A DNA stretch of 64,000 bases from Moniliella sp. 'wahieum'. Its lineage: Eukaryota. Shown in pieces: positions 9,238 through 49,379 of this stretch (its first letter is position 1; every line of letters begins with the position of its first letter). The stretch lies in contig RSEE01000001.1 in assembly GCA_003971905.1 (NCBI GenBank), positions 124,001-188,000 on the forward strand. Reading direction: 5' to 3'. The notes beneath the pieces are model-generated. The model saw only the letters and a program-made list of their open reading frames with translations. It was not told the DNA's origin and did no database searches. The translations under genes and the position numbers were made by a program.

Positions 9238-10336
9238 GGCGGGCAGTGGGGGAGGGGTGGGGGTGGGGAGGAGGAGGGATGGTGGGGGCGTGTCTGAAGC
9301 GAGGCTTGGCAGCCGCCGCAAATCGCCAATCAGTCATCGGCATGCGTGTTCGCGTGCACTGAACGTTCACCTGAACGCTCAAACGTTCATCTTCAGCTGC
9401 CTCTCAGCCTGAGATCGCAGCCTCTCCTCTCGACTCCGATCCCAGCAGCCGCCAGCAGCAGCACGCCTCAGCCTCAGCCCCACCGCCGCACGCCGCCAGC
9501 ACGCCGCTCCAGCCGCAGCACGCCACAGCCTCCCACTCCCCAGGATACGGGAACCCTAGCGGCCCTGCCCACACACGGCCCTCATGCCCCATCCACGTTC
9601 AACCTCAAATACGCTCAACCCGTGATCGATAAGCAAAACCCAACACCACATATGCCCGCCCAAACATAAATAGAGAGAGCAGCTGCCTCGCCGGCATTGG
9701 CTTCGCCCAGTGCGGTTGCGACGGGCAGGGATGACTAGGGTATTCCGCTCAATCTAAATCCTATCCACAGTGGCGAGACACTATCCTTCGCATTCCGCAA
9801 GAAAAGTAAAAAAAAATCCTACTGAAAAAAGATGAGCACAAAAGTAACTTAAGGTGATGACCGAAGACGTCAGTGACCTATGGCCAATGATTAATGACCA
9901 GGGTCGACGGCAAGACGATGAAAGTGAGAGGCCGACGCGCTTTTCCACCTCAGAGAACACGGTCCCAACCACACGTTGCACACTTGTAAGGCCAATCTGA
10001 CGCTCTCTCTGATCGTAACATCTTAACCAGCTTGTCAAGCTTCTCACGGTCTATTGAAACACCCCATCCCCAAACCTCACACACCAATCGCATCGAGCGC
10101 CCGTAGCATCCATTAGAATGAAGGTAGTGTGCATATTGCATGAAGTGAACAAAAAACGGAACTGTTCATCCATGCAGTCTGAAGATAATAAAGACTGAAA
10201 AACAGAATGAGATCGAATAGGTGCAACCTGAAAACGGATACAAGGGAACACTTTTTTCATGAAAGGCTTGATGCGATCAACAAGTTGGGTGACCAAGCGC
10301 CAAACCGAGAGAAAAGAGAGAGGACTGAGGACTGAT

Positions 10337-12542
10337 TTAGGCCACCGACACGGTGGGCGTGATCATCCTCCTGCGAGTGTAGACCGTACCGGCCTCCACA
10401 TCCTCGTCCATATCCACGTTCTTGCCGTCGTTGCGCTCTCGGCCGGCTGCCAAGGTCTGGGCAAAGATCGAGCGTTCCCGCACCTCCTTGCCCTTGTACC
10501 ATAGAATGTAAATGGGGAAGATAATGAGGATCGAAGCAAAGGCCAGCAGAGTGGTGGCCCACTCGTACCCCATCTTTCGTACATTGGTACCGAGAACATG
10601 GCCGAAATGCCCGCGAGGAAATCACGCGCCAGCGCATTTCCACCACACGCACTCGCACTGTCGTCATGGTCAGCCAACAAAACACAACAACAAAGCCAGA
10701 CACGGGAACGTACCTGTAAGGACCGTAGGCGGCAATCATATAGTCAACAGTGGCAAAATAGATAGCGTAATTGGCCATCGAAATGAGCGCACTGAAAATT
10801 AGCGGTGCGATCCAGTGGGAATGAGGGGGACCCATGGAGGTCCAGGCAAAGCCGAATAGACCCAACGTCTCCCAAGGACAAAGGAAGAGGAGATATGTCA
10901 AACGAGCCTCGGGCGTGAGCGCGTTACGATCACGCTTCCTCTGCTTGAGCTCCCATCCAAACCGGGGCAGGTAGAGGCCCAAGCGATAACATAGCCAATG
11001 ATGACCGAAAGAAAGGCGAGGCCGACTTCGACGGTAGTGAAACTCCACTGGCCAAACACCAGTTCAAAGCTTTTGGAAAATAAAGATAAGCATGTCGCTA
11101 AACCCAGAAAGAAGGGAGCAGAAGAGCACAATTGGCTCCCGCACAAACATCTCAAATGGACGGATCCAATGCGTAGCCATCGACTTGAAGTTGATGCTAC
11201 CCTTGGCCTCGGTCGGACCCCAGATATTGGACTCGCCGGCACGACGACGACGACGGGCCTCACGGTCCAAGAGGATGGTGGAACGTGTCTCGGGCACAAT
11301 GAAAAAGTGAAGCAGCTGAGTCAGGCCATTGAAGCACAGCTGACTCCAGAAGTTCCAAATCAAAGGCACACCTGGGATACCAAGGAATCCTCCGATGAAC
11401 GCACCCCCTGACACACCAAAGCACGAGAGGAGCACCATGAATGCCAAAGCGTACTGCTGCTCGTCCGGCTCAAACAGATCAGCCACCACAGCCAGGGTGA
11501 CACCACCATTAGCCGTAAAGAGGCCACAGAAGAAACGAGAGACGACAATCGAACCAAAGTTGGGCGCCAAGGCAGCCAAAATGGTAAAGCCTTGGAGTCA
11601 AGAGAAAGTTAGCCGGTTGCTTCAAAACAGGACAAACAGGGTGGGCTCATATACGCACTGTTAACGAGGGTCAAAGACAATTGCAAGATTGGCTTCCTCC
11701 CAAATTCCTCAGACCATGGTGCCCACAGCTCACAGCCAAAACTGTAAGCCACCAGGTAAATCATCTGACCCACACGGGCCGCTTGTGCGCTGACATGGAA
11801 CTTTTCGACAATCCCAGGCACGGCATTGGAGTAGCAAGAAGTGTTGTAGTTCATCGAGACTTGAATCAGGGCGGTAAAAACAAGGGTCAACCACTTCTTC
11901 CAGGTGGGGAAAGAATATCCTGTAGCGAGATACCCAGCGCGTTCGGTAAGAACAATTTCCTTCTTCGTTGGGGCGTAACTGCGCCTCGCCCTCAATCGCC
12001 TTTTCAGCGTTGGACTTGAGCAGGTCGTTCTTGTTCTCGATCCGCTTGATTTCATGGGGATAGTAAGTCCGCATCCGGTCGCCTAGGCCAGGGTGACGGA
12101 TCTTGACACGTCCATCGGGATACTGGAAGGCAGTCAGAGCGGGGTCTTCCGTAGTCTCCTTTTGCTCGGGCTCCTTCTCGTCTGGGCTGTCGACCGAAGT
12201 TTGCGATCCATCTTCGTTGGATGGGGGGGTGGGAGTGCTAGCCTCTGGCTGGGACGGGTTTGGCACCTGAGCCATGTCGAGCGCCTCGGGTGGGGGGGCG
12301 CCTCGACTGCTCATGTCACCGGGACGAAGCAGGGCGGTGAGAGCAGCGGCAGGAATGCTGCGAGTGCGGCTCTTAGTGCGGGAGTGGGCATTGGTGAGCG
12401 CAGGACCTTCGTCGTCCGAGATGGCTGTCTCGTCAGCCGCAGAGGCAGGGGCGGCATTGGACAGAGCCGCGCGGGCTTGGGCAGCCGTAGTCTGGGACCC
12501 CGCTGACGCCCTATCGAACGGGCGTGGCTCGGTACTTGACAT
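10337..12542 (-). CDS. MFS transporter, DHA1 (drug/polyamine:H+ antiporter-like)
   Basis: WKKWL, WAPWSEEFGRKPILQLSL, FFIVPETRSTILL, WIRPFEMFVREPIV, PEARL, DYMIAAYGPY, SACGGNALARDFLAG. Introns ~11590-11655 and ~10655-10712. Confidence 0.92.
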
Positions 12543-13226
12543 GGGTACTGTGACTGTTGGTTAGGCGAGGGCGGATGGGGGTGGTGGGCAGTGCAGAAAT
12601 ATAAAACGGTGTCGTTCTTGAGAAAGGAGAATCGAAAAGAATATATAGCCACGCAGGGAAAAAAACGGCCGCGTAGAAAGAGCACCCGTCTTATAACGGG
12701 TGACGTATGACGCGTGACGTTGACGGACCCGCGCGTGTAAATCCAGGGCGTCTTCGTGCCGAAAAGTTCGATCACAGTGACGCCGACAGTTTCGCACAGG
12801 GGGGCTGTCACATGCCCCATGCAATGCGTCAAATATGACACCTCACCCACGCGCAGCAGGCCGGCGGAATGGCACACGAGGCGCCTTGGCAGTCGAAACT
12901 GGGCTCGAGCATTGCAACGCTTGCGGCAGTGTGACCCACCCCCCATCCGATCTGGAGGATCTGAATCTAACATCGGTGATGGCTGGCATGGAACATGGTC
13001 ACTGGATCGAGAGGACATGGCTGTTGGGCGTTGGGCCGGCCCACCTCCTACACGCTGCATCAGAGCAGCAAGTACCTGTTGGCCTGCGTGCTCCCGGTCA
13101 GCTGACGGACAGAATCAGGCCGGCGGGTCGGGGCCTGCCGGGGCCAGAACGCCCGCCGGGGCGGTTCTGGCCTGTTACATGTTATGCAAGTTACGGCCAC
13201 AGGAAACATACAGATGTAAACGTGGA

Positions 13227-15830
13227 CGTTGAACGTTGAACCAACGTTGAACGTACGTACGTTGAACGCTAAACGGTACTGGACCCTGTGGGATAGGTTG
13301 TCGACTATCGACTATCCACCATCCATTTTGTAATTGGCCAGTGTCACGGTCCTCTTAGCTAATCAGGGGAATCTTCTCACCGCTCTCCCCGCTGCTGAAG
13401 GAGGAGTGGAATGGAGGATGTGGTTCTGAGGAGAGGTACAGGAGGCTATGAGAAGGGTAGGGCCTTATATAGACGAGAGTACCGCGGAGCTGAGGAAGCT
13501 TCCGGGCGGATAAGAGGGGTGATGACTATCACGCAGGATGGCGTGATTGGGGCATCGCCCCAACGCCCGCCGATCCTGTTCTCCCTCCTCCTACCAGTGC
13601 ATCTTTGGCTTCCCTTGGTACTTGGTCTCACTCGTATCGCCCGACCCTTACAGCCAGAGTAGAAGAGAGAACCTCTCTCTCTGGTTTCAACACCAGAGTA
13701 GACGCCGGTCAGATCTCAGGCTGTTTTCGGTAAAACCACGGGAAGTGATGTGGAACTCAATATCAATGCTGTTCCTCCCACTCTTTTCACACTTTACTGC
13801 CAGCATCCTATTGGCTGGGGGACTACGGCTATTTCTTGACCGGCCTGTAGTGATTAAAACTAGTTCTAACTAGCTCTAACCTACTAGTCACTACCCGTTT
13901 TAACTGCCGGTTACCCACCCCCTCGATGTTCGCGCTCGCTCACAACAGCGGGTCGATGACGTCAGTGACCAGTGATTTATTGATTATCGATTAAATATTA
14001 AGCGCTAAGCCCAAGCCTAAGCCTTAGGCCCCTTCGGCCTTAAACTTTTAAGTGATCCATTACTTGCTTTACTGATTAATGACGTATGATGCATGATGCA
14101 TGATGCATGGTGCAGATGGGTGCGGTGACCGGTGACCGGTGATGTATGATGTTTGATGCATGATGCCTGCCCCGAGCAAAATAAACGCCTTCGAAAAAGT
14201 GAGTAACTGCTGTCACAAACTGTCGCCTACTGTTGCCCGCCCGGGACAAGGCGGATCCATAGAGCAACTGGTAAGCCCGGTAACGAATATTACCCATCAT
14301 GCATGCAACAGCCAGTTACCGGTTGCCGGCTACCGGTCACCGCACCAGCAACCCCAGGAACCGCCAAGAGTCAAATAATCGTCGGCGCGACCGCCACATG
14401 AAGGCTGCTGCTGCTGGTGACCGGTGGCCTGTGGGTGAGTACTCAGGCTCAGTTAACTGAGTGCGGGCGAGCTGTCTGGGGATGGTTCAACGTTCAACGT
14501 TCAACGTTGATTAATGATTCCACCCTCCCCCACCGACCGTGGGGAAAGGGGCTCGGCCAGAGCGCCCTGTGCGCGCAGCGTCAGGCGCGTCAGATCTCAG
14601 ACCGTCAGACCGCCACGCGTCAGGAACCACTCTGAGAATGGCGAGAAGGCGCTAAAATTAATATAAGGACACACCGAGCATCCCGCTGCTGCCTTCCCCT
14701 GATTGCATCCCCACCATCTCCCCTTTTAGTCATGCTCGCCTCCCACAGGTTTGCTAAGGCCATATATAGGTAGGCCTGGGGCCCAAGGGCCTAAGACTTA
14801 AGGCAAAGGTAAGCCACGGGGAAAGGCACCACAAAAGGAAGGCAAATGTCAAGAGCCCGAGAGGAACTGTGCCCAAAACGTAAAGTCGAACAAGGGAATA
14901 AACTTCGATACTACACAATGGGGAATGTATGGGACCGCATGGTTCTCAGATTTTGTTGGCAGGCCGGATTTCTCGTTTTGTCAGTGGCAAAAAATTGCCT
15001 GTATGTTTGTGTGGCCGAGACAGGCACACGCCAATAACGTATTCAATACCGCAGCCTCCACTAGCTCTTTGGAAGCAGGACTGAGCGCGCTGAAGCCTGC
15101 TGGACTTCTTATATCTCAAGCTTGAAGAGCTTGTGAAGCTTGAAGGTAGGATCGCACAGCCATAATGCATAACCCAAGTAGAAACTAGTACGTGGAGCTA
15201 GGTGGATAAGTTTAGAGGTTCTGGCACGTCTGCTTCATCATATGCACATGCATCATGCGCCATGCGCCATGCACCATCGATCATCAATCATTAATCATTG
15301 ATCATCAAATCAGTTGACTAGGAACTGCGCTGTGCCAGTTACTAGTTACTTCTCGATTTACTAGAAGGGCTCGCCTCTCTCGTGTGACATGCGCCACGTG
15401 ACGTATGAGCATACGATGCAGTTGGGATCATCGATCATCGATCAGAGGACTTGCAGGCTCCTGCAACGCTTCCGGTCCGGCATTGCTCGCTCCGCGGCCG
15501 GCGGTGTTTCATACGGAGCGCGGCTGGCAGTGGCTGTCGTACCGAGTTTTACATTTCCCGCCGAAGTGGTCACCGGTCACCGGTCACTGGTCATTAATCA
15601 TTTGTCCTCGATCCTCTCTGTTGCGCCATACGTGATGCGTGACGTTGTGTGACTTGCATGTGCAACAACTGTGTGTTTGTTTTAATGCTGGCCCGTTTTG
15701 GGGAAGTTCTTCAAGCTTCAAGCTCCAAGCTAACGTCACGCATCACGCGTCACGAGTCAAGCTAGTCAACCTTCAAATCTTCAAGCTACAAGTGAAGCTT
15801 CATGCACTTCATGCATCACTCATCATATGC
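13227..15830. repeat. Cluster of 7-bp (TNA + palindromic 4-mer) arrays
   Basis: Examples: TGAACGT at 13230; TGATGCA/TGACCGG at 14073-14163; TCAACGT at 14487; TCACCGG at 15570; TCAAGCT at 15711. Confidence 0.85.
13342..13652. mobile_element. Solo LTR (311 bp)
   Basis: Starts TGTCACGG and ends CCCTTACA. Flanked by an exact 5-bp direct repeat GCCAG (13337-13341 and 13653-13657). Internal TATA-like TTATATAG. Confidence 0.75.
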
Positions 15831-15989
15831 GCGACTAGCGCGCTGATGATTGGTTAGGGTCGCACCGCGTTCCCCTCCTTCTCTCATGTTGCGTTCAAGG
15901 GCGGACTACACCAACTGACAAGAAGCTATCTATAACTGTTTCCTCCTTGGACAGCAGTGCAATCGTTATCCTTAGCTTGGTAGCGTAGA

Positions 15990-16275
15990 TCTCCCTTCTT
16001 TATAAAATTGGAACGGTTTTTCTTCCCCCGCTGCGTAAAATTGTACATCAGCATGCCACCTGGCACGTTCCAGGCAGCCGCAGCCAGGCCGATGTATATG
16101 GGTGATAAAATTCGCCCCTCCAGCGGGGAACGGTGGCTACGGTGGCGAAGGTGGACCGGTGGAATGGTAGCTAAGGTGGACCGGTGGAACGGTGGCTAAG
16201 GTGGCGACAGCACCAAGCACACCAAGCTGGGGCGAAGCCCCAGCTGCCCGGGCCGTAGGCCCGGTGGTCTTCTAG
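15990..16275 (+). mobile_element. Non-autonomous mini-Helitron
   Basis: 5' end A|TCTCCCTTCTTTATAAAA; internal GGTGGCTAAGGTGG-type minisatellite; two GC hairpins; 3' end CTAG|T. Related copies at 42499, 45991 and 47332. Confidence 0.75.
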
Positions 16276-16512
16276 TACTTGTCAATTAACGGACAACCGC
16301 GGTTCTGGGCTCTCAGATCTCATTATGGTGTGACCGATTCATGGCGCTCACCCATTGATCGCCCAGTGTAGTGCTTCGCCTCGCCCTAGCCCCCATTCTT
16401 TCAGAAGGGAGTAGTGATTAAGTGATTAGTGATTTGAGTGGGTCATTTAGCTCATCGAGCGCATTTCGATCCTGTGCCACCTCTCGACCGTTGCATTTTG
16501 CAAAACGATCTC

Positions 16513-18400
16513 TGTGATGAAAATGTCACATTGGAGGCGAAGGTGAAGAAGGCCAGAGGACTAGGTAGAGAGTATGTAGCAATCGTTCGTGGGGAAGAGT
16601 CAAGAGCAGAGGGCATGGTACGAATCGGAACAACAGGGAAAGGTCGAGACGCTCGGGGACGAAGGAATTGGAAATGGGAGCCTGCGAGCTGCGCTACATC
16701 CGGTTTGGAAGCGAAAGGCGGGCGAGAGAGGGTCCTGAGCCCTGGCCGGCCTTACCTGCAAGCGTCTCCTCCCGTTTCCTAAACGGGTTTTGGCGCAAAC
16801 AAGCATGGTAATGTGGGGAGTATGCTAATGCATTATTCTTTCTTCGCTTACAGTGTATAACGATAACAAAAATGGCAAAAATGGAAGCGGTAATTACTGC
16901 ATACAGTGCGACTCGGAATCACTCGTAAAGTCTGTGGTGCCGTGGAACACGGCACTCTCCGACGAACAGTCTATTACAAGAACGCTGGCCATCAGCAGAG
17001 AGTGGGCACAAAATTACAAGTGAAGCGAAGAACGGAGCGGTGGGAGAGGCAGGACACCAAGTGTAGAGAAGGAGGACGGAAAAGGGCGAGCGCGCGCGCA
17101 AGCGCGAAGAAGTATCGGGCATGAACTGATCTATAGTGCCTCTGAGCAATGGCGCCAGCCTCTATTAGTGTCACCCCACGTCACAACAGCCCCCCCCCGC
17201 CACCTGTCAGCTTGCCTAGGAATGCCGTGAGGACGAGGGGAGGTACGGGCGCGGCGGCTTGTCCATTGCAGATTGGGAGGCGCGGCGGAAGGTCAATACT
17301 TAGCCTCCACCGTTAAAGAACAGAGAGCCACGCTTCCCATGCAGGTACTCGTGCATACAGCTCGCGGCCATCAAAGTGGAGCAGCACGCACGTTGTGTCG
17401 CTGGAGGCTCGGACAACGCGATAGGGGCCCTCCTACTTGGCCGTTAGTGCGCCAAAAGTCTGGCAGCGTTTTACGACGCCAACGGAGCGCTTGACCAAGC
17501 AGCCGGGCGGGAAGTGGATACGTTATACCCGCGGGGATGAAGTACGCGTGGCGGCGATGCTGCTCTGCAGCTCGCGCAGACGCTCAGCACTGATGAAGTG
17601 GTCCTCCTGTACGGAGAAGAGAGGTTGGGTTGGACTTGCGTCAGGGATGTGTGTGCTTGCACCATCGGAAACGTGTTGGATGCGGCGCTCAAAGAAGATG
17701 GTAGCGGGGGCGGTATGGTCAATGTGGCGACAGAGCCTCTCAGGGACGGACATTGTGGGCGTGCACCAAAAAGGCATCGAGCACTGCTGGCCAACACCCA
17801 ATTTGGAGCAGAGAGAGGAACGGAGGGTAGTGCATAACCTTTTCCAAGCTCGAGACTTCTCTTATCGACCCCCGGCAAGGTCAAGAAGGCCTGGATAACT
17901 GGATAACGATACCGCCGAAGCTGCGGCGGCTGACCCCAAATAGAATGGAGCGCACCTGGGACAAACCGTGCCAGTTGGCGCTTATCCACGATCCTACAGA
18001 CATTCAATCTGCGGGCAGAGGACGCGAATATGGGAGTCCAGACCAATTTCGGGAGTTTAGTGCTCCCAACTGCGATCAAGCTAATAGATCAAGAAGCATA
18101 TGATAAAGTCGAGCTGCCGTTCATTTTCCACATCTTATCGCTCAGCACTCCTACTGAGAAGTCTCTGCTAATACGGAAGTGGGGATGTTTGATTATCGAT
18201 TATCATGAGGCAGCAGAGGGGGGTGGTGATGACGCGCGTCAGCATGACACGAGCATTGTATTTATTGGAAAAGCATGGAAAGGTCCGCATTTATCCGCGG
18301 GCGAAAGGGAAGTGTGTCGCCAAAAGGTCATGACCGCGTGGAAACAAGGGCAGGGGTTTTTAAAACACCTTGTGGCATGCCACAGGCATGTTCCCTGCTC
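16513..18400 (-). mobile_element. Decayed Ty3/gypsy retrotransposon remnant (RT and integrase fragments, PPT, probable 3' LTR)
   Basis: Minus strand: MPQG-LKTPA..FHAVM near 18330-18380 (RT motif, frameshifted). FPPGCLV...LTAK*EGPYRVVRA..TCVLLHFDGREL near 17350-17520 (integrase GPY/F region). G-run PPT then TGTTGTGA starting at 17188. Possible LTR end TCATCACA at 16513. Confidence 0.65.
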
Positions 18401-18892
18401 CCCACAGGTTATTTACGGTTGCTTCTGTTCTCCCACCACCCTGCTTTGAGCTGACCGTCGCAGCCGAATTCTGCCTCTGCCCTTCACGCGCCCTCCATTA
18501 TTGGTAGACAACTACTCAGCTGCCTGTTGGCTGTGGACTCAAAAAACCTCAGTCTGAGTGGCTGACTCTGGCGGCGAGAAAAGAAATCCGGCTGGCAACA
18601 GCGGTAACGGTAACCGGGATCTTGCGCGGCAAATACGCTTGTTTTTGTCGCCAATCACTTATCCTCGCAGCTTTTGCCGCCCATTGCTTGCCATAAGGTC
18701 AGCGTTGGTGTTGGCAGTATCAGCCAGTCCATTTTCCCCGCGGCATCCAGGATGCGACCGTTGTCGCAGCCGTATAACCCGTCGCCACCCCGTTCGCCAC
18801 CCCGTTCGCCCCGGGCTGCATCCTCTAACCATCATTCCCAGACCGGCTTGCAGCTCACACGGCCACTTCTCTTGTCCTCCAGCCACTTTGAT

Positions 18893-20084
18893 ATGAGCTT
18901 GCCCTCCAAGAGGAAGCATAGCCGTCACTCGCTCCCCACGCTTGCTCCAGCTGAGGATGACGACCACCTCTCAATCCCTGGAACCGATGCTTCCATTTGC
19001 GACCACAACACACTCCTCTCCCTGTTGAACCACCACCTGTGTCCTGCCGATTATGGCATTGCGTATGGAGCGGAAGACGTGCCACAGACGGTATTTCTCC
19101 AACTAGGGAAGACCCCAGTCTTCAGTTAACAAGCGCTGAAAGGCGGCAGATCGTGTTGAGAGTTGGTTTCACCATTGCGTGTCTCTTTTTATGCTGCATT
19201 TCCTCTCTGGTCGGGATTCTGTGGGTGTGTCTCCCTCCGGTTGAACCTGAAGATAAGGGCCAGTTCCGACTTCCGCGGTCGTTTGATGAGCTGGTGGTGC
19301 TGCATACGTTGATGATAAAGTACAAGGAATCATACAGTGCCCGCCTGCTCATCTGCTGGACCTCCACATTCATTTTTCTTCAGGCCTTCGCTATCCCCGG
19401 GAGCATGTGGATGGCTATTCTCGCCGGAGCAGTGTGGAGTATGCCCATTGCCTATCCACTGGTCATATCGGTGCGTTACTCTTTCCGCATATTATGCCCT
19501 ACTACTGCGACTGACTCAAACGCGATATGTTATATTAGGCTGTGGCGTGCGGAGCGACGGTAGCGTACTTTATCAGCATGCCCATGGACTCACTCTTGTT
19601 GGTTCGGCCGCGGTGGAGACAGCGGGTTGAGAGTTGGAAGGCCCGGATTCAAAAGGAAGACCACCTCATATCTTACCTTGTCTTACTCCGCATGGCTCCC
19701 GTTCCGCCTCACAGTGTGGTCAACATTGCTTCTCCCCACTTGGGTGTGAGCTTGTTCCCGTTTTGGATCAGTACGGCGATTGGCACCGCAGCTGTATCAT
19801 TCATTCAAGTTACCCTAGGCCAAAAGCTGGAAGAAATGACTACACCTGAGGAGATGCAACTCGTTTCAGGCCATAACATCCTCCTACTCGGTGGGATCAT
19901 CTTGGCTGCGCTCGTTCCGTTGGTGGCGAGGAAAGTTTACCAACAATCCCCCTTGGAAGATCCTGCTGGGCCAGAAGGCCAGGTTGCACTTCCCCCCACG
20001 CCCGGCCAGCCTATTCCTCCGATATTGAGGCTCATCTCAACGGATGAAGGGAGCTTACTTCCGCCTCGAGATCCTAACTCCTGA
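18893..20084 (+). CDS. SNARE-associated Golgi / VTT (DedA) domain protein, TMEM41/Tvp38-like; intron ~19471-19538
   Basis: FRLPRSFDEL, FIFLQAFAIPGSMWMAILAGAVW, CGATVAYFIS, YLVLLRMAPVPPHSVVNIASPHLGV..FWISTAIG. Confidence 0.85.
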
Positions 20085-36547: not shown

Positions 36548-37844
36548 TGGGTTTCCTATACATATATATACCTTTCTCTCCAATGCTTCCTTCTGCCAGC
36601 ATCTTTCTTTTATTGCGCATCTCTATACTATCTCAATTATTATCGTCATTTATGCTCATCGACATATATGATGATGCATTGCCACATGACGTGTCACACC
36701 TGTGCCCTGTGTTATAGGCACTCCTACCTGTGCGCGTAGCTATAGATCGTCGATCAAGCCTTTTGTATTATCGTATCAATAAACCTCGTTGGGGTTCGCC
36801 CATCATGGATGGAGAACTCATTGCCGCGAGAGACCTCGAAATAGGTGTGATCCGTCGAGAATCCAATCACTGAGGGTCTTCGGTTTATAATACCCCGTGT
36901 GCATACGCATATGTATGCTCAACTCTGTTTTCGAAGGGGGAGTGCGCAGAGCGCTCAAGAGACAGAGGAGAGAGGAGACGACGGTATACAACACATCTTG
37001 GCCTCTGCACCCATCCACCAATGCAAGGATAGCATGAGGCCTGCACGATCCGATCCTCGAGTGTGTATGCGCTCCATACTATGCGGGATGCCACCATGTT
37101 CACAAAATGAACCCGGTTGTGGAGGAGAAAGAAAGAGGAAACGGGGTGTGTCCTTCCGGGAAACAGGCGTCGTATGTACACGGATTATATCCCATGATGT
37201 GGGTAACGAAGGAGCATTTGGTACCATTGAGGGATGGAGATGGACCACACATCTTGAGAGACCCCACCAGTGTACAAAGGAGGCCAGGTTTGTGTATTAC
37301 TGGGGAAGGTAGTGGTGCATAAGGATATTACGGCGACGGCTTTTTGGAACCCTCCTCGGGATAGAAGGAGCTGTGCATCTCGACAGAGGAGGAGCAGGTT
37401 GGTTGCGCCATGATTACGAAGTATAGCAGTGAGGCACTTTCAAAAGGCACCCTTTCCCCTCTGATGGCTATTTATGACATCACAGATACTATTATGATAC
37501 AAAAGATCTTTAACAAGACGTTTGCGTTCCCCCACAGGAGAACGAGAGTCCTCCTTCTCCCCTCCGGCGTCTCTATATATGCTCTCTAATTAGTGATCCT
37601 GGTTCCCCAGTCTTATAAAGTAGAGTTAGGCAGTGGTGAAGCTTAGAGGAAAGACAGGAGCTGGGTTGAACGTCATCGCGTCATACTCCTCCACAAAAAA
37701 GCTTCAAGCTTATATATTCTACGTCTCAACGTTGCTTCCAAAATTCCCGCGCACAAGAGATATATGCATTGCCCGAAATCATAGCCTACTCAGCGTTAAA
37801 AGCTTGATTATTCTTCCGATCCTCTGTCCTTCCGCGCCAAGCGC

Positions 37845-39603
37845 CCAAGCCGGCTTCAAGCTTCATCGATCATTTTGCCATATGGTGATGTAATGCATTA
37901 TGGTATGGCGATGACCGGATGACCGAGAGAAGTGAGCAGTGAGCAGTGAGCGCTCCGCGCTCCAATCGCTGATTAATATGATTGTTGTGACGCACACCCG
38001 TGACCGCCTGGCCGTACCTTGCCCCAATCGCAAACAAAGGCATTCGCATTTCGAATGCAGCAAGCTTCAAAAAGAGTAAAACCAATGGATCCCATTCAAT
38101 GCATATCAACGTCATCAACATACCCAGGTGACATGCATCGTGCATTGCATCATGCATCGTGCGAGCTCCCGGTTCGTTCAGGCACGCGAAGGCATACGTC
38201 CACAGGGCCCAACCACTAACAGGTGCCATCAGGTGCCACACGTCCCTTGTGGATTGGATGATTATTTTCGCGATGCATGATAACACTCTTTCCGTCCGGC
38301 AAGAACCCTATATGTGTCTCTGTTTCCGTAAATGAATATACAGTCTCAGATGTCATACTGAAGAGTGTGACATTCGGCTGCTGTACAACAGTCTTCGGAT
38401 TTATAGTGCCTTTTGCGTCCGCCGATCGAGCAAACATAAACTTAGTGCCGGCATAGTATACCCGTGAAACGTGAAACACTCTCCCGGCATTTTGTGGCTT
38501 GTGGGGGGAAAAGAGGAAGCAGCTTATTCTTACTCGGCGAGTATAGAAGCGTCCTCAAAATATGGCGCGACCGCGATCAGGGAGATATTTTGCCCATCGG
38601 ATCTCAGATCTCAGATCTCAAATCTATAGACGGCAAGGCCTCTGGCAAGACCGAAGGGTTCAACTATAATTTAACTATTAGTCGCGCTTCCTTCCCTAAT
38701 GTAATGTCTCGTTCACGGCCGGCAGCGGGGATAATCGATAATCGATGGATGCTTTGTGTCGAAAAAAGTATAGAAGTGTGTGGATCTAGTGGAACCTATC
38801 TATAGATGCACTTCAAGCTTCAATGTCGATATGTTGATACTCTAAAATTGAACCTCACAAGCGCTAAGCTCTTCTCTCATCGATCATCATGTATCAGATC
38901 ATCAAATCTCAGATCTCAGATCATCTCAACGTTCAGCTCAACGTTCAACCGTTCATTGAGAATAAGCCTCTCAGGCTCTCATCAGGCCCTCAAGCCTCAG
39001 GCCTGAGGCCTCAGGCATCGGCCTCATTGAGTACTGAAGGCCTCAAGCTTCAAGCTTCAAGCTTCAAGGTCCTCCAGCTTCAAGCATGATGTATGATGCA
39101 TGAGCCGTTTTCGTAGTCGCAGGCCTCTCTAGGCATCTCTTTACAAGCTTCACTAGCCACTTACTACTCTTTTAACGTACTTCCGTGAAAACTCCGTTGT
39201 AACGTGTAACGCGTAACGTCTATAAAACGCGTAACGCATGACGCATGTTAAGCGTACGTTAAACGCACGTGTTGATGATGCAGGAATTATGTAAAGATGT
39301 GTGTGTTGGCTTAAGTCCGTGGGAAATGGTGCAACAGGTGTAGCCAAGTGGCAGGAACCGCTAAGCGCTGAAATCGCTAATAACGGCCCGGAGAAACCAT
39401 TGTCATGCTGGAGACTATACATGGATTAATGGATCATCTCGATCATCGATTATCGATAATCACACAACGCATCCACGGCCTCTCCATGTCTCCCGTCTCG
39501 AACAAATTGATGTTGACGACCCCCCCCCGGAGCCGCGTAACGCGTAACGCGTAACCCCAGTGTTGATAATCAACAGAACTACACAGTAACTAGTAACTAG
39601 TAA
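37845..39603. repeat. Dense cluster of 7-bp (TNA + palindromic 4-mer) arrays
   Basis: TCAGATC (38603), TAATCGA (38732), TCAACGT, TCAGGCC, TCAAGCT (39043), TAACGCG (39538), TAACTAG (39587). Confidence 0.85.
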
Positions 39604-39881
39604 TGTTTGGCACCTAGCCTTTGTGTCAGAGAAGAAAAAGGGCCAACAAGGATTAGGCAGAAGAGAAGCAACATATATGTGTGTGCTGGAAGAGATTATA
39701 CTTGTCTTCGAAAAAGAATAACTGAGACGTATATGTGGATTGTGTGTGTGCAGCAGTACAGCGTGCAGCCACTGTCATGTGTACGCGGCGGTTATGAGGT
39801 CAATGCATAGAGCATAGAGCCCCCGCCGGAACGCACATGCCGTGTATCTTGTGGGTAGCTGCCCGCGCATATGAATAACTT

Positions 39882-41061
39882 TTACGGTTGCTGTTGATTG
39901 TTGGCATCGCTTCGAGGGTTGTTTGGAGACAGCACTGCATCGTGCTGATGCTGGAAGGAAGACCAAAAGGAAGGTGGTGGATGAGGAGACAACGATGGCT
40001 GAGAGGCCATCCGCCTGCCTGGGGTTTCCCCCGCCGCGGCAGTTACTACTGGGAAGACCGGGGCCGGGGGCGGGGGCGGAGGATGAGATGTGAAGTGTGC
40101 CTCTGCGTAGGATGTCGATGAAGCCTCTGGCGCTTCGGTCGTATGCGGGCCAGTGGTGAAAGTGGGCGAATGGCTATTGGGCCAGTGATTACTCAACGAT
40201 GGCCCACCGACTTGGGATACCGAAGGTCCGAAGGGGAAATGCTTTGGTTTCACATCCTCCGGTTCATGGGTTAGTCCAAAAGACAGTTGTTGGTATCCAG
40301 TGCCATCGTCCGGAACAAACGCAAGACGACCAGAATCACTGGCATAGGTTGGAGGGCCCGACGTAGCTCCATATACCCATTCGATGTCCCATTCCCCACA
40401 TGCCCAGCAGATTGATGCGCAGTCGGGCCATAGTTAGATTGAGGAGAAATGGATGGGGCTGGAAATGGTCTACCCCCCGGAGGCATGTCTGGGGGTCTAA
40501 GCGACACTCCGTTTGGATGCGGCACAGGTGTTTGGTTCACAGAAGGAGGAAACGATCCGATGCCGTGGCGAAAGATGCGCGGTTCCGCCCCAGGTCCTCC
40601 TACTCCGGGTAAGGGAGCATGCAGCTCAAAAAACGGTCCGTTCTCTTGGCTTCTGCTTCCGGCTGGACCATCCAGAACATGAGGCCGAACTTCGGCCAGC
40701 TGAAACGAAACCGCCGTCGTGCTCGCGGGGTTCGCGTCAGGCGACGGAACCAGAAGGTTCACAGGCAGAGGATTGGGGCGCTGCTCATAACCTTGGCTTG
40801 TTGCAAGATGAGGATTGTGCTGATGGTGCATGGCCTGCAACATCCCTCGCAGCCGCGTGTTTCTTGGCGCAATTCTCTCACTGTATCTGTAAGGTTTGGG
40901 GGGGCGGGGGGCGGAGTTAGCATAACGTTTTGCAAGCCTGAAGAGGCATGCTCACTTTCGAGATCAGCAATGTACTTCCTGCGGCGCTCACGGAACGCAC
41001 GCTGCACCTCGAGGGCACGAGTGGGAGCTGCATCGCTTCGAGGTCGGCGGCCACGAGCCAT
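39882..41061 (-). CDS. bZIP transcription factor (AP-1/Yap-like basic region; 3' end uncertain)
   Basis: MARGRRPRSDAAPTRALEVQRAFRERRRKYIADLE matches the QRAFRER..YI..LE basic/zipper start; followed by P/S/Q-rich low-complexity sequence. Confidence 0.8.
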
Positions 41062-42498
41062 TGGATTGCCCAATGTCCAGAACCTTCTGGGGCGGCGGAG
41101 TTGGTAGAAGATGTGAGAGGTGAGTCCAAGGGACTGTTGCGGGCGGAGTGGTGGCGACAGGAGTCAAGAGCCGTAACCACAAAACTGGTGCGGACTTTGG
41201 CCACAGGAGGGGGTCGGCCCTGTCGATAGACGATATAATACGACACATCGCGCCTCATCGCGGGGCGTTGGTAACGGCACCTTATACACACACACACAAG
41301 AGGGAGCTGCCTATGCGACATCCCTTCCCTCCAGGATCCACCGCAGAGCGGCAGCTGGAAGCGTGCGCCACGTCGCAATTGCCAATTCATCCCATTGCGA
41401 CCTTTCGGATCACTTCACCTTGACCCATTTGACACAGCAGTGCGGGCCCGAGTCCCTACGGAGTCCCTTCGTTGGGTTCACGCGACCCTATTCGTTGAAC
41501 ACACTGAACATGTGGCATGAATATCAAGGAGCGCTGAGCAGCGCACCGCAGCCTCAGCGCCTCAGCCGCTAGCGGAGCCACGAGACGCTGGACGCGCTGG
41601 ACCACTGCTAGACCCCTATGCACCCCTCTTGTAATGGGTGATGTATGATGTGTGATTTGGGGACCGCTGGCGCCGAGGCGCTGAGCGCGCCTGACCGGTG
41701 ACTTCGGAGAGCTGATCGGGAAGTTGGTATCGCCTCGTTAAAATGATGGGGTGTAAGGGTCGAGCGATATACGAGTGTAGGCCGACTGCCGGTTGCGGGT
41801 TACCGGTTACCCGCATTACATGGTCATACCGGTCATACGAATACTGTCGCCGCTGATGGTCACCGGTCGTGCAGGTACGCGTTACGTGGCTACGGTCATA
41901 TTGCGGCACGAATCTGTGGGGGAGAAGGGGTCCAAGGTATACACCTGTGTTCTGGTCAGTTGGTTACAGCGCCGGTCTAGCCATGTCTAGCCAGATCTAG
42001 CCGCGCTCAGCTCAGTCTGTGCTGGCTGAGCGCTCAGGCTGAGCGGAGCGCAGTAGGTTGATCACGAGATCATCCACCATCTATCATGCGGAGCAGGTCT
42101 TTAGTCAGATCGGTCAGAGGCTGTGGGTCTATAGCTAAAGGGAGAGACGTCTCCGATTACTCGGTTAACACAGGTGCACTCATTGATCAGAACCGTAATC
42201 GATAATCCTACCGGTATCATATATCACCTATCATCGATCAGCGCTCTCTCAGGCTAGAGCGGGTTCAACTGTTGACCAGGGTCCTATGGGCTAGCCACCT
42301 CCGCGGCACTCCTGACCATCTTACTCATCCGGGCACCACACCAGTATCCCTATCCCCTGGCCTAGTGCCGCTCTCCTTTCTTCTCCTTCTTCTCCTTCTT
42401 CTTCTGATCCTCAGTCTGGGTTCAACCCAGCTCCTGTCTTCTCTCTGCCATTGCATAACTGCACTTAGGACGTCGCTGGGTAACCAGGATCATTAGCA

Positions 42499-42563
42499 AG
42501 CACCAAGCACCAAGCTGGGGCGAAGCCCCAGCTGACTGGGCCGTAGGCCCAGTGGTCTTCTAG
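42499..42563 (+). mobile_element. Helitron 3' terminus (same family as 15990-16275)
   Basis: AGCACCAAGCACCAAGCTGGGGCGAAGCCCCAGCTGACTGGGCCGTAGGCCCAGTGGTCTTCTAG|T. Confidence 0.8.
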
Positions 42564-42777
42564 TGTTTCAAAAAAGTACAAGGCGGAATAGGGATTGCTA
42601 GGAGGCGGCATTCGTTCCGCGTGCGGTTCATCCATTATCTTGTCTGACACGTCTCCTGGCTCCACCTTGGCCCGCCTGGCCACCATCGCGCGCTTGGGTC
42701 TGAGAAGCCCCTGGCGTCTCCACACCGTCTATCGACATGTCGGACAAGGAGCGTGCTGAATCTCCCAAAATTTTGCG

Positions 42778-43533
42778 TCAAAAATCTGCCTCCCTCTCAG
42801 ACAGCGAGGGAGAAGGGAAAGAGTTAACCACACCCCCCCCCCACTGAGGGCGAGGGGGATGACTCATCCGAGGTGGATGACTCGTCCGAGGGGGATGATT
42901 CGTCCGAGGAGGATGAAGATGACGAGATGGACTTGGGGCTCGCCATTGAGAGCTCTCTGGAATGTACAGGCGCCAAATCACTCTTCAGTCTCAGAGTCGT
43001 CTGTGCGGTCGTCGTCCTCGCCATCGGTGCCCTCTGCGTCAAAGAGGTTGACTGCAGTGCCGTCGTTGTCCCGTTCATCCTCCTCATCTGTTATTTGTGC
43101 CCGGGTTACTGCGATGTGACGGAGGTGGGTGAGTTGTGCACGAGTCGCACCCAGGCGGTACAAATTTCAGGGTTACCTTGCGGAGAAGATGCGTGTCCGC
43201 AATGCCCTCGAAAATTTCCCAGGCGCTCGTCCAGCCCAGTAGATAGCTTGCGGGGCGAGATGAGCGAAAAAAGTCAGATGACCTGCTGGACGACAACGGG
43301 GTGGCGACGTACTTATGATCGGACAAAGAGACAGTGATGGCACTGAAAATGTCATTGCAGCGCTTGCTGTTGTTCAGACTCCGGTTGAGCAAGACTGTGC
43401 ACAGGGCAGATGGGTCAGGGAAGTTGTGATGTTGTAAGATACGTCCCATTTCCATCCGGAAGTCAATGTCGTTCGGTGCATAGCAACAGAGGCGCTTTTG
43501 ATGAGAACGGGTGAGATAAGTTATTGTGGCCAT
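42778..43533 (-). CDS. Hypothetical protein or pseudogene with acidic/Ser-rich C-terminal part
   Basis: ORF pieces MATITYLTRSHQKRLCCYAPNDIDF..., DEEDERDND...GEDDDRTDDSETEE, and an 18-bp repeat encoding SDESS units. Interrupted; no family recognised. Confidence 0.3.
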
Positions 43534-43689
43534 ATTGCGAGGAGAGCAACGCGTGAAAAGGCGGGGCCGGTACGTACCAGGATTCGGACGCGCTCCTTGG
43601 CGACAGTGAACTCTTGGTGAGAGAGGATGCGAAAGTAGACTGGAAATGACGGACGAAATCAGCCCGAAAGGCTGCAATTGTGCGCCTTC

Positions 43690-43959
43690 CGTTGCCTCGA
43701 TCGATACGGTGCATGCTCTCTGGCAATTGGACGTGTTATTTGTTAGTAGATGGTTTAGGGGTTTGGGTTAACGCACCTCATTCAAATAGCCTTTGTTGAG
43801 CGTTACCCGCCTCTGGATCGTTTCGTTGCCTGTTGCGCGGATGCGGTGCATGCTCTCCGGGATCTGAACGATGTGTTATTTGTAATAGTTGGTTTAGAGG
43901 TTTGGCTCAACGCACCTCATCATTCAATAGCTTGTGCTGAGCGTTGCCCGCCTCTGGAT
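43690..43959. repeat. Diverged ~135-bp tandem duplication
   Basis: Both halves read CGTTGCCT...CGGTGCATGCTCTC...GTGTTATTTGT...TGGTTTAG...AACGCACCTCAT...TGAGCGTT.CCCGCCTCTGGAT. Confidence 0.85.
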
Positions 43960-45990
43960 GATGTTGGACAAGGCACTGTTGATGGTGGATCTAGTGGGGG
44001 AGGCGCCGAAGAGAGCGTGGACTCTTGACCACCATCAGCAAAACGTGCTGTCTAGCCGACATGCTAATGGATTCGACAATTTTTACCCAGTGGCACTGGC
44101 GTGACTTTGTGCGTCGCTTGCGGGATCTTGATCGACATCTTTTCTGGATCATTTGCCTGCGCGCTTTCACACGTGATATGCCGCTGTCTCTCAGGGACCG
44201 TCAGGATGCAGGCGGGGGGGCGATGCCAGATTGGTGGTGGGGGGGGGGGGCTCGTCCACGTACACAGCTCGTCCATTTCGGCTACCTGACAACCTAGCTT
44301 TTGTTGTTGACGGTGCGGGTGGAACTGGACCTGCGATACTGCTGGGTCCGCGAGAGGGGCTCGCACGAGCATAATTGCCTGGACGGGCTGTTGCACTTAC
44401 TCTGGTGGAACGGTGGCGAGGGATGGTGGTGGGGTGTGTGTGGAAAGAGGCAGGACCAGGGGGTCTGGCTGGCTCTTGTCAAGTGTGGCTGCAGTGCGGA
44501 GGTAGAGCAGATTGCGCCACTCACATGCGGGGGGTTCCATACAACGCACTAGGCAAGTCTTTTGCCCCTGGCCGGATTTGGCTAGCCAGGAGCCAAACTG
44601 AGGATGCACTGAGGCGCTGTTGCTGCAGGGAACAGGCTGCGCCCAACATTCTCTGCACCAGGCAGTGTACGCGCGGGCGCTGCCAGGGGGGGCGCCCAGG
44701 GGGTTAAGGCCTAAGGCCTAAGGGTACAATCCATTGGAGATCCTGAGGTCGACTAGCTCTCACGGTGGTTACGCACTTGGCTGATGGTGGGTCCGAGCGG
44801 GGCTAGGGACAAAGAAAGACTTCTCGGCGTATAGCAGAGGTGGCTGCCAGTGTGGCAAGGCTGTGTAGCATAAAGGAAGAACGGGGGATAGAAGGGAAAC
44901 CAGGGGGCGAGACGGTTTTGGGTACGGGCAACCTAAAAGGTAAAAGGGCACCGGGCGACTATCGTCTCCAGATTGAATCTGACCCCATGACCAACCTGGG
45001 GATGGGAATAGGAAGGCGACAGGCGCACATAGGCTTCGTCAGGCTTGCCAGCTCGTCTTCGCCCGTGACCGGCAGTAGGCAACTGTCGCTCGATGGTGAG
45101 CGAATAAGGCTACGTAGTGTCCTGGACAGATCGAAGCAGCCAGGCCAACAGTGAAAGTTGAGTCGCACATTCAAACGTTCGCCGTTGGTACACCGGCAAT
45201 GTATCGACACCGAGGTACTGGAGACTGGAGCCCTAGCTCCTCCAACTCTTGCTTCAACTCTTTTCGGCTGCAAGAATGTCCAGCACTGCCAGCCATTGGA
45301 TATGCACCGGATATGTCGTTGATACCCGTACTCGTCTTTTGACACAGAGGGACGCCCGACGTCACCAAGATCACACCGGGCACACCGGGTGGCGTCCAAT
45401 AGCCCAGCTGCAACACTGGACACTGCAGCAGGCATCATTCGTGCACCCTGCGCTCCGGCGCGCAAGCACGATCCCAGCTGGTTCCAACCGGCAACCGCTG
45501 GCCACCATCTCTACTGTGGCCCACATCTGACATTAATATGTCAGATGTGGCCTCCCTTGAATTTTGCACCTTCAGCCCCTCTCTGGATTGCCCCCTGGGT
45601 CTCCCACGCAAAATGGCGATGTGGAAGATGCTTTTGGATGGAGGACAACGCTGAAACGTGCGTTGCCCACAGTCGGCTGGTCCGTCTACCGAACCCGAAG
45701 CGACAGCGGATCCTCAGTCCGGATCCAAGCCAGAGCGGCGATCAACTCATCGGCGCGCACACAAGTCTGATGCCTCACATAAAGACGCACTCCTTTGCAG
45801 TCTCCGGCTCTGTATTGAGGATCTGTCAGAAACAATAATACGTCGCCACGGCCCGATTGCTAGCAATATGTTCGCGCCCTTTACGAACCCGTTCATTGCC
45901 GTCATCAACATCATCCAGTTGTGGTTACCAAAAAGTATATGCGGCGAGAGCTCGCCGAACTGGTCCTGTCACTGATTGAGATTATTACGC

Positions 45991-46066
45991 TGCGTCGCCA
46001 CCTTAGCCACCGTTCCACGCTGGAACCATTCCACGCTGGAGAGGGAACATAATATCTTTTCACCCG
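45991..46066 (-). mobile_element. Internal fragment of the mini-Helitron family (no terminal hairpin)
   Basis: Reverse complement contains GGGTGA...CTCCAGCG...GGAACGGTGGCTAAGGTGGCGAC, as at 16100-16208. Confidence 0.6.
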
Positions 46067-47000
46067 TCCCACATTGACTATGCGTGATAATAACTCAGAT
46101 GACCTCCACTCGCAATGGGGTGGATGGATTAACGCGAATCCCACTTCACCATCCGGCTCGCGCGTGTGCCAAGCGAGACGACTGTGATTTAACTATACAA
46201 GCGCGTATGTTGGCACGGTCACCTTTATCTCTAGCCTTTATCGCGGGAGCTACTGGGGGCATCGGTACTTCCTGGGCCTCTGACGCGACGCGACGTGGCT
46301 CTGCACATCGCCTTTATTTGCCAGACGGCCAGCTAATGATTCCAATGACAATCTTCCGGAGCATGGGACAGGTCGCACACGCAACACAGCGTTCATTAAG
46401 CAAAAGGTTGGACTTTTGCGTGAAGGAACAGTTGAAGTGCAAGCTGGTCCGCAAATGTAAAACCTGTCGTTACCCGTGTTCATCGTCGAACTGGTTGGTT
46501 CGCTCTGGTCCGTTCGACGGGGTCATTCTGCGACCACCGACAATTGATCTGGTCCAATGAATATCCGGCCGAGTCGGAACACTGCGATGAAGGACGTATA
46601 TACTACACGGACCAGTGGGGCCCAAGCTCCGGTCATCCAACACCTTACTGTTGTCGGAACCAACGAGGAATGGGTCATACGTTGGCTCATGAGTACACAC
46701 ACCTCATGGAACAAGAAGAAGATGGTGAAGAAGTGTTAAGTCGCGATACGACAGCCTAACCTCTGGGGAGACAGTCTCGCTTGACCGATTTCGGTTTCAG
46801 ACACCATCTCTCAAACGCGCCTGTCCGACTATGGATGTATCAGGACGAACGACTCTCGATGATCTCGTCGGTTTGCTCGGAGAACCCAACAGACTTTTCA
46901 TGGCTTTCGTTTGCGGGGTTAAAGCAATGTGAAGGGCCAACAAAAGTCTATCTTCAGCGGGGCTGCACCAGTCGTCCCTGCGTGCCCTGTACTCTGATGA

Positions 47001-47230
47001 GACCTGGAGTCCGGATTGTCCTCGAGGGTGATGCAATCGCACTGATGGTGGTGGTGATGGTCTAAGCCAACCAGCAACGCCTACTGAGGAACATCAAACA
47101 GCGAGTCGCCACCAGGGGCTAAGCTGCGGAACAAGGAAAAACAGGAGAGAAAAACAACGGAACTCCTAGGCCTGAGGAGGAACTGAAGGGACATTGGCCA
47201 AAGCACGAGCCACCCGGTGGCTCAACATAC
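47001..47230 (+). repeat. Dispersed diverged repeat / pseudogene fragment, copy 1 (paralogue at 58601)
   Basis: Shares ACCTGGAGTCC..GTCCTCGAGGG..GTGGTGGTGATGGT..AGTCGCCA..AGGGGCTA..ACGGAACTCCTAGGC..GAGCCACCC..CGGTGGCTCAACA with 58601-58832. Confidence 0.8.
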
Positions 47231-47331
47231 TCAAGCAGAACTAGCCGCAGGATGGATGCCTGATGAACCAAACCCTCATCAGTGGGCACAATGCTGTGCC
47301 GCATGGCCTGCCTTTTGGTCCATATATGAAA

Positions 47332-47548
47332 CGAGGAGACCACCGGGCCTACGGCCCGGTCTGCTGCGTCGCCACCGTAGCCACCGGTCCCCCGTCGCCA
47401 CCTTAGCCACCGTTCCCCCCTTCGCCACCGTAGTTATAATATCACCGATACGCGCTGGCTGGGGTGGCTGGGGTGGCTGGCTGCGCCCCGGTGGCTTACG
47501 CAATGCTGATGTAAAAGAGTGGTGCACACCCCGTTTGGGATTCTAATA
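47332..47548 (-). mobile_element. Diverged mini-Helitron copy (minus strand)
   Basis: Reverse complement has TACATCAGCAT...GGTGATA, the GGTGGCTAAGGTGGCGAC minisatellite, hairpin CCGGGCCGTAGGCCCGG and end TGGTCTCCTCG|T (CTAG mutated). Confidence 0.7.
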
Positions 47549-47549
47549 A

Positions 47550-47775
47550 CCCTGTCCCAGCCTTAAGCTCTGTCAATGAAATGGACGTGGTCTAGAGAGG
47601 GTACGGGACCGGATGGCGTGAGCCGGAGGGTCCTGATATCCTGGCGATCCCCCTGGTCCCTTGACCCTGGTGGCGCCCCCAAGTAACCCCCGCAAGATGA
47701 ACGGTTAGGTTTAGACGTAGCGTTCCCCCTGTCCCAGCCTTAAGCTCTGTCAATGAAATGGACGTGGTCTAGAGA
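47550..47775. mobile_element. A-B-A split direct repeat (possible tyrosine-recombinase retroelement terminus)
   Basis: Exact 49-bp direct repeat (47550-47598 = 47727-47775) around a 128-bp B segment; other copies at 4927, 31075 and 49380. Confidence 0.55.
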
Positions 47776-48065
47776 TGAGAGGTTCCATTTACCTGACGTT
47801 AAATCTTGGCCACATCAACTGCCGATGTTCCCCTGGCTAATCTGAAGACGCATGTCCCCGTAGAGCACACCCTTCCGTGCGGCGACTATGCCAAATTGAT
47901 TCCCTGCCCTCGGCCAGCTACCATGAGCGCGTATAGGAAGCACGCGTGTTGACAGGTGGTTCTGGTAGCATTCCTAGCAGAAGACACGAAATGGTGTGGT
48001 GGGATTTTGAAACGACGCAAAGTTTCACATGTATCCGGCAGTTGGCCCCCCGCGCTGCACATCAT

Positions 48066-48133
48066 TGACACCAACGACCTCTTTTGCGCCGTCGCTGACA
48101 TCAACGACCTCTTTTTCGACGTCGCTGACATCA
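48066..48133. repeat. 30-bp tandem repeat (~2.3 copies)
   Basis: tgacaccaacgacctcttttgcgccgtcgc / tgacatcaacgacctctttttcgacgtcgc / tgacatca. Confidence 0.85.
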
Positions 48134-49379
48134 TTTCCCTCAAAACCATGCGAACACGTCGCCGATGTCAGCCCCTGGACATCCGCTGATATTTTAAATC
48201 TATTTCGTTGATCCGCTGTGTATTTATCGAGAGACCCCCTGCTTTTTCCACCTGTACTTAAGTGCGTGGCATCCCCTTGGCGACGCCACTTACAAGCCGT
48301 CGCTGCACTAGTTGCAATGATGCATCAGTTCTTGATATAATGATGAACGTATTAAGGTGAGTATTTTATGGATGAACAATATACGTACTCTCGATTATAT
48401 CTGCGGATGGCCTCTGACGACGCTGATGCTCACTATATGATCTGCTGACCCCTTCCTCTTCCCAAAACGCATCCGCGCGACAAGAATTGCCCCCACGCTA
48501 AAGTCGAAGTCGGTTGGCCTAAATGAGGCCACCAAGTTTCCGGCACCTTTGCGACCACTGTCGCCCCGTTTCACCACTGCTTGCTTTGTCCTTATTTTCC
48601 GTTGCGCCTGCGGCAACGAACCCCTCTTTTGACATGTCTTTCCTTTCTACACCCCTATTGTGCCCGTTTTCCCTTTTAGATATACTCTGTACCCCTGGTT
48701 ATGGTGGGGATCCTTTCCCCAACACCTCCCATTCTGGCCCCTTCTCGCCTTTCCTGCCCGACTCCTCTGCCCGCTTCCAGCCAATTGATTCAGTACAGAG
48801 GCAATTCGTCTACCAGCTTTCCATTAGCCCACGAGCCGCTTCGAGTCCCCATACCAACTTATCACTTGGGTTCCTTTCCAGACGCAGCGTCAACAGCCGC
48901 CCCTGTTTAGTCCCAACTCTGGCAGTGTTTGTTCTCCATATTGCCTCTACCGGTTCCCAACAAGTCCTGGAGGCTTCAGACACGTTACTACGGTTCAAGT
49001 CAGTGCGTACGCCGCCTTTCCACACGTGAAGCTGTCTCCGCTCCACCCCCAAAGGCTTCTTCTTGTCCCTACCTCCGCTCGGATTCACCAGCTACAGCTC
49101 TTCAAGCCAGAAACCACCGTGAGTTGTCCTTCCGTGTCTCCTAAGGGTTTTTGTACCCCACAAACCTGGGTGAGCCCCCTGACGGGCCCGCCCGTGACTG
49201 TTAGCTTTTGCGGGCAGTGCCCCAAGGTTCTGGAGGCTTGAAGGGAGATCATCACCCTGAAAACAGTAGTGTCATTCTAAACGAGGAGAGTCGCTCTGTG
49301 TGGGGGGAAAGAATGTCTTTTCCCCGAGAAGAGGTATATGTGACGGGCAAAATTATTTAGAACCGCAAAACGTATATAT

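Follow-up and report, generated by a model that had tools for sequence, protein, structure and literature searches.

Footprints left by the excision of cut-and-paste transposons are usually seen singly, in reporter assays, and the hairpins made by RAG and Transib are flush, giving even palindromes. In the part of PMC5499845 that was available, hAT, Transib, RAG and MULE are described as forming hairpins on flanking DNA, which are opened and joined by host enzymes and leave footprints. The nucleases Pso2 and Artemis cut hairpins two nucleotides 3' of the apex, according to the accessible text of PMC3299998. For Ac/Ds, a hAT element, the palindromes are odd, with the complement of the element-adjacent base at their centre (excerpts of PMC5873905). 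Among fungal transposons, 7-bp duplications are given for hAT7 and Kyakuja (without TIRs), while the CMCT clade is characterized by CA..TG termini and duplications of 2-5 bp (passages of PMC12730594). With these systems we compared the heptamer arrays of a 64,000-nucleotide stretch of contig C1 (the whole stretch analysed, hereafter the window).

The arrays are real and far more frequent than chance would give. In the window, 103 units consist of a TNA trimer, a palindromic 4-mer and the same TNA again; 30 order-2 Markov simulations gave a mean of 2.4 (maximum 8). Five TNA in phase are found six times, and none of the 30 simulations produced such a run. Identity between 6-mers peaked at lag 7 (367 counts), with 106 and 70 counts at lags 6 and 8. 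Of the trimers that recur at lag 7 on either side of a palindromic 4-mer, the four TNA trimers were the commonest (43, 36, 15 and 9), and the next reached 7. Genome-wide, (TGA N4)x3 TGA gave 6,469 matches and its reversed control 1,204. The spacers of the window comprise 15 different palindromes, and units were present in every lineage sampled. Only 1 of the 103 units fell in gene blocks conserved between lineages (17.6 kb), where 28 were expected; the other 102 were non-coding. The densest cluster of heptamer arrays lies at 38132-39603.

The CCT4 chaperonin encoded in the window was 83-87% identical to smut and Exobasidiomycete proteins and at most 81% identical to those of other basidiomycetes, and the organism was therefore placed in Ustilaginomycotina. 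The arrays discussed below lie ~1.5-3 kb upstream of a spliced MFS transporter gene on the minus strand (10257..12542, limits approximate), which was recognized from Pfam MFS_1 on 11067-11579 and from open reading frames and is ~80% conserved in other lineages. The next gene rightward with a Pfam hit encodes a VTT-domain membrane protein on the plus strand (18893..20084, start approximate). No Pfam or Rfam match was obtained in the ~6 kb array stretch between these two genes (Rfam: 12400-19000). The locus recurs several times in the 69.5-Mb assembly, with about six copies of the MFS gene and about six of CCT4, and the MFS copies have DNA identities of roughly 96%, 80% and 75% (contigs C1/C55, C9/C38 and C47/C10/C109/C160). 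Judged from these contigs, the assembly appears to comprise three lineages, each in two haplotypes, as would be found in a hybrid, a polyploid or a mixed sample.

The haplotype pairs C1/C55 and C9/C38, in ~86-96% alignment, served as built-in orthologues. Indels were compared over 268,640 aligned columns, a small share of the genome, with one block of <84% identity left out. An indel was counted as clean when its flanks were gap-free and had no more than 2 mismatches in 24 bases, and indel polarity was judged by indirect tests, without a close outgroup. Repeats were counted in a 304-kb set made of one haplotype from each of two lineages. The same alignments contained 1,538 clean 1-bp indels, and frameshifts occur in the CCT4 copies and in all copies of the element described below; part of these may be sequencing errors of the assembly.

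We found that one type of event between haplotypes accounts for the unit. Clean indels numbered 33 at 5 bp, 28 at 6 bp, 86 at 7 bp and 24 at 8 bp. The event converts uv-TNA-xy into uv-TNA-(xy + its reverse complement)-TNA-xy (right form), or the mirror form from uv (left form). In other words, the palindromic insert is templated by the two bases beside TNA, and the duplicated unit is the TNA-centred 7-mer. This rule fits 28 of the 62 non-tandem 7-bp indels (16 right-form and 12 left-form), all of them T-N-A-centred; a further 5 of the 62 fit with other centres, and 29 fit with no centre. Tandem copies made up the other 24 of the 86 clean 7-bp indels, and 15 of these also fit the rule. Other lengths gave few fits: 0/58 at 4 bp, then 1/27, 1/22 and 1/20 with rising length, 3/18 at 9 bp, and 0/59 at 10-16 bp. 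The three fits among the 18 non-tandem 9-bp indels consist of the 7-mer, 2 inverted bases and the 7-mer again, and so display the whole TNA-centred unit. Across the 304 kb, the two nucleotides in the arrangement '7-mer, 2 nt, same 7-mer' were an inverted copy in 31 of 58 cases with a TNA centre and in 34 of 367 others; among the 27 TNA-centred misses, many derive from a few 9-bp tandem runs. Of exact 7-mer doublets, 21 of 80 were TNA-centred.

In indel-rich DNA, non-tandem TNA-palindrome repeats were haplotype-specific at 30 of 92 scorable sites (113 unscorable), compared with 9 of 235 for other period-7 repeats (248 unscorable), 1 of 255 for period 6 (142 unscorable) and 3 of 193 for period 8 (183 unscorable). 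Generic microhomology deletion therefore does not explain the TNA units. Within a single dispersed repeat family, the unit is missing at one site from at least 9 of the 18 copies aligned, on several contigs, and present in the rest; thus, at this one site, the unit is derived. Since a left-templated unit differs from a right-templated one, their accumulation puts unlike palindromes in phase within one array.

The earlier note on this DNA had listed eleven TGA at 14073-14163 with their spacers, plus arrays at 13992-14008 and 15570-15600, and every one of these is present in the sequence as given. Three of that note's four arrays obey the flank rule at both ends. Array 2 (14126..14163, plus strand), which goes back to an ancestral gg-TGA-tg site, is the type case of a two-dialect array, with left and right units in phase: its CCGG units are left-flank-templated, and the TGCA units that follow are right-flank-templated, two having decayed to TGTA and TGTT. 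Its counterpart in C55, of equal length, is a clean CCGG x3 then TGCA x2 between the flanks gg and tg. The TAA array (13992..14008, plus strand) takes ATAT from its left flank (at) and GCGC from its right flank (gc), thereby fitting the rule at both ends, and lies in a region strongly different in C55. The TCA array (15570..15600, plus strand) has CCGG units matching its left flank (gg) and a terminal TTAA matching its right flank (tt). This right-form TTAA unit is missing in C55, where the site bears a +9 scar (two copies of a TNA-centred 7-mer separated by a 2-nt inverted insert) that is not in the window. Array 1 (14073..14103, plus strand) has five TGA in phase, and its TGCA units obey the rule on the right (flank TG), while its spacers TTAA and CGTA are an exact fit to neither flank; both of these also occur in the partner haplotype C55 and are therefore older. 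A further array outside the earlier note's list (14487..14517, plus strand) has ACGT units in agreement with its left flank and TTAA in agreement with its right flank, its central trimer being TGA in the window and TCA in C55. Among 13 mixed arrays, the first spacer agrees with the left flank in 10 and the last spacer with the right flank in 9, with a chance of ~1/16 each.

Other repeats were also observed. A 173-bp dispersed repeat (13393-13565; ~40 listed copies of 93-99% identity) is absent from C55 and has a 5-bp duplication at its flanks. A second one, with internal 8-9-bp repeats, occupies 15991-16275, 42514-42564 and 47331-47421, the first copy being absent from C55. Copies of a ~230-bp non-TIR element with a purine-rich tract lie at 37591-37671 and 42270-42495; another, at ~68.5 kb of C1, sits within a ~15-bp duplication and is retroposon-like, and some copies have gained heptamer units. 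The inverted pair at 37591-42495 (4.9 kb) had been considered as a TIR element and was rejected, being two opposite copies of this ~230-bp element. The repeat-rich ~6 kb at 42254-48221 is replaced in C55 by 425 unrelated bases.

A candidate for the kind of transposon involved was found elsewhere in the assembly. A pattern search led to one element on C11, and the end of that element, used as query, retrieved the rest of a young family. Its five copies measure 4,849-4,970 bp, are 99.2-99.7% identical and have inverted ends, subterminal repeats and CT..AG termini. An exact 7-bp target duplication flanks four of the five full elements and a 378-bp derivative. T-(C/G)-A stands at flank positions 3-5 in each of the 13 distinct ends or insertions; the two C11 ends among them had been located by this very pattern and do not count as independent. 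The C11 element (L056:2241-7089) faces TNA at the expected distance at both ends, yet its flanks are unmatched, which suggests a rearrangement involving two insertions. The same 7-mer target, in either orientation, recurs at three full elements and at one further end, all with different wider flanks, and this points to a strong target preference.

The partner of the C35 element has the target 7-mer once, which confirms the duplication. The partner of the C29 element (C53) has a right-form scar at the same base, with an even palindrome that is not made of the element's terminal bases; the background of such scars is 43 in 10,048 TNA sites. Thus a scar occurred at 1 of 2 comparable element sites, a single element/scar pair; the search for a partner of the C34 element returned no match, and the partner of the C23 element is rearranged. 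Because the element copies are >99% alike and the C29/C53 flanks only 87%, the C53 scar is probably a separate visit to one favoured site and not the exit of a shared copy. At an old element end (C8:478694 versus C23:153503), the C8 copy has two extra bases at the flank, identical both to the flank bases when inverted and to the first two bases of the element; either a reopened-and-rejoined hairpin or slippage would account for them. In the one family examined, the TNA centre is common to element and scar targets, but A/T stands on both sides of TNA at 11 of 13 element ends and at 5 of 28 scar targets (Fisher p 8e-5). The TIR family is therefore not the sole source, and one has to invoke other families or extinct ones. 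Full elements were few, compared with haplotype-specific scars at ~1 per 10 kb.

The coding content of the family gave a weak lead. The copies have no long open frame, and no transposase was firmly identified in them. None of the 35 frames screened, out of 111 listed for the five copies, had a Pfam match, and a protein search with the longest frame found no match at E 0.1 among 1,550 candidates, which is weak evidence. Compared with the Atlas, the element came closest to a DUF4218 cluster (0.95, 190/256 features), with recognition below threshold, and one frame has an H-x3-H-like motif. The best Transposase_21 of the genome (PF02992; L045:7990-8985 on C17, E 7.5e-14) was rejected as a source, having no likeness to the TIR family. 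Kept in both haplotypes (C17 and C62) and without inverted ends within 20 kb, it is probably stationary and possibly domesticated. A generic scan of part of the assembly for TIRs with duplications found no TNA-centred element.

Taken together, we consider that the arrays are accumulated excision scars of a cut-and-paste element at TNA sites, with a probability of about 70%. The anatomy of the scars suggests that the transposase would seal each flank as a flush hairpin. A host nuclease of the Artemis/Pso2 type would then open it 2 nt 3' of the tip, leaving a 4-nt palindromic overhang on each side. End joining that kept one overhang would give +7 in the left or right form, and joining that kept one and a half would give +9. 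A flush hairpin opened 2 nt off the tip would account for the fixed length, the near-equal numbers of left and right forms and the even palindrome. The element's terminal bases were ruled out as the source of the spacers, which follow the flank in 28/28 fitting cases. As the scar would re-create the target, repeat visits could add left- or right-templated units in phase, and slippage and point mutation would afterwards lengthen and decay the runs. The arrays would be largely neutral, and their confinement to non-coding DNA would follow because +7 is a frameshift. A narrower proposal, to which we give somewhat less than even odds, is that the source is an unclassified group related to EnSpm and Transib, with CT..AG ends, 7-bp TNA targets and a RAG-type flush-hairpin exit, which has left about one scar unit per kb of non-coding DNA.

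That the arrays are not simple slippage repeats had been claimed from the window alone, and the claim held when adjacent spacer pairs were tabulated against a model of slippage and point mutation. Of 167 adjacent pairs in the 304 kb, 58 repeated one and the same palindrome, 45 were one-base variants, and 14 stepped from a palindrome to a different palindrome, 10 of these differing at all 4 positions. Simulation with matching decay produced ~0.9 such steps, and 0.003 with all 4 positions differing, so that the steps exceed the expectation for decayed repeats. Ordinary heptamer microsatellites, decaying through slippage and point mutation, are thus a very improbable origin. They would explain why 24 of the 86 clean 7-bp indels are tandem and why identical (58/167) and one-base (45/167) spacer pairs are common, and slippage surely acts once two units exist; however, they predict neither the 14 steps nor the 28 rule-fitting events that are not tandem copies, and they give no reason for a TNA centre. 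Slippage is refuted as the origin and stands as a secondary process only. The earlier note had further proposed that the lattice is selected or actively generated. Active generation stood, the unit event being seen between haplotypes, while selection did not. Haplotypes differed at 22 of 928 T/A positions, 32 of 928 spacer positions and 469 of 10,636 flank positions, where requiring the motif to be intact in one haplotype approximately halves the expected rate and sites are counted from both sides, so that they are not independent. Conservation of T and A above neutral expectation was therefore not found, and there is no sign of lattice selection. Spacer turnover is not random, the spacer being an inverted copy of the two bases beside TNA.

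A factor reading TGA half-sites at 7-bp spacing in promoters could still be imagined, since 102/103 units are non-coding, units occur in all lineages sampled and palindromic hexamers of the kind bound by transcription factors lie within them. We regard such a selected lattice as quite improbable, because T and A are not excessively conserved, about one third of the scorable non-tandem units are haplotype-specific, and the window uses 15 palindromes that follow the local flank. The lattice arises as a side product of duplicating a 7-bp, TNA-centred unit, and some units may have been co-opted later. A host copying error without any element, that is, a template switch at a break near TNA producing a micro tandem-inversion duplication, seems unlikely to us, though less so. 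A polymerase or end-joining enzyme would copy 2-3 bases backwards and re-prime upstream, and a free or domesticated transposase-like nuclease could be the source of the break. A 5-bp duplication with 2 inverted bases added also describes the +7 form, and the scars far exceed in number the elements recovered and use a wider range of targets than the one family. On the other hand, such an error does not predict a +9 form with the full TNA-centred 7-mer, nor the identical 7-bp duplication at real elements, the scar at an element site and the fixed length.

If the arrays are excision scars, such scars appear to form the dominant class of small insertions >4 bp by which haplotypes differ and to have seeded a repeat grammar across the genome, offering a route to tandem repeats other than slippage. 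They would also serve as a fossil tally of earlier transposition where few elements survive, and would let hairpin opening and end joining be read from the genome itself. They point to a transposon lineage whose duplication length and ends lie outside the description of the CMCT clade in the available part of PMC12730594. Should the reading as an unclassified group be true, this genome would be a natural archive of P-nucleotide joints, in which transposon exit and not slippage would be the main seed of tandem repeats and a steady source of palindromic promoter motifs. Such arrays should be read as transcription-factor lattices only where binding data support it. Among the listings of our literature searches on smuts and basidiomycetes, which covered few subscription journals, no paper describes the pattern.

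The comparison with known systems separates the features that are shared from those that are not. Tc1/mariner and Stowaway footprints, as far as the excerpt of PMC4561436 describes them, likewise combine a small duplication with a short insert upon excision, but their insert comes from the element ends, whereas here it follows the flank in 28/28 fitting cases. The fungal EnSpm/CACTA and Plavaka elements of the CMCT clade are alike in having TIRs with subterminal short repeats and an H-x3-H-like motif; the CT..AG ends and the 7-bp duplication set the present family apart from that clade as the consulted passages of PMC12730594 delimit it. Ac/Ds footprints in plants, S. cerevisiae and Candida albicans, in the portion of PMC5873905 at hand, are alike in combining the duplication with short P-nucleotide palindromes, in having a few dominant footprints and in showing short arms in a fungus. 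In contrast to Ac/Ds, the palindromes here are even. The odd-centred hAT form was ruled out by its occurrence in 0/28 clean 6-bp indels and by the even C53 scar, and its scar geometry places the element outside hAT. RAG/Transib (V(D)J coding joints, P nucleotides), hAT and MULE, insofar as the sources cover them, likewise leave short flank-templated palindromes at the joint. With RAG/Transib-type exit the arrays would also share opening by a host nuclease followed by end joining. The best reading, by analogy, is that scar formation works like RAG/Transib-type excision with P nucleotides. Unlike RAG/Transib, the duplication here is 7 bp and TNA-centred, and the outcome is very uniform (+7 and, less often, +9) and forms tandem arrays genome-wide.
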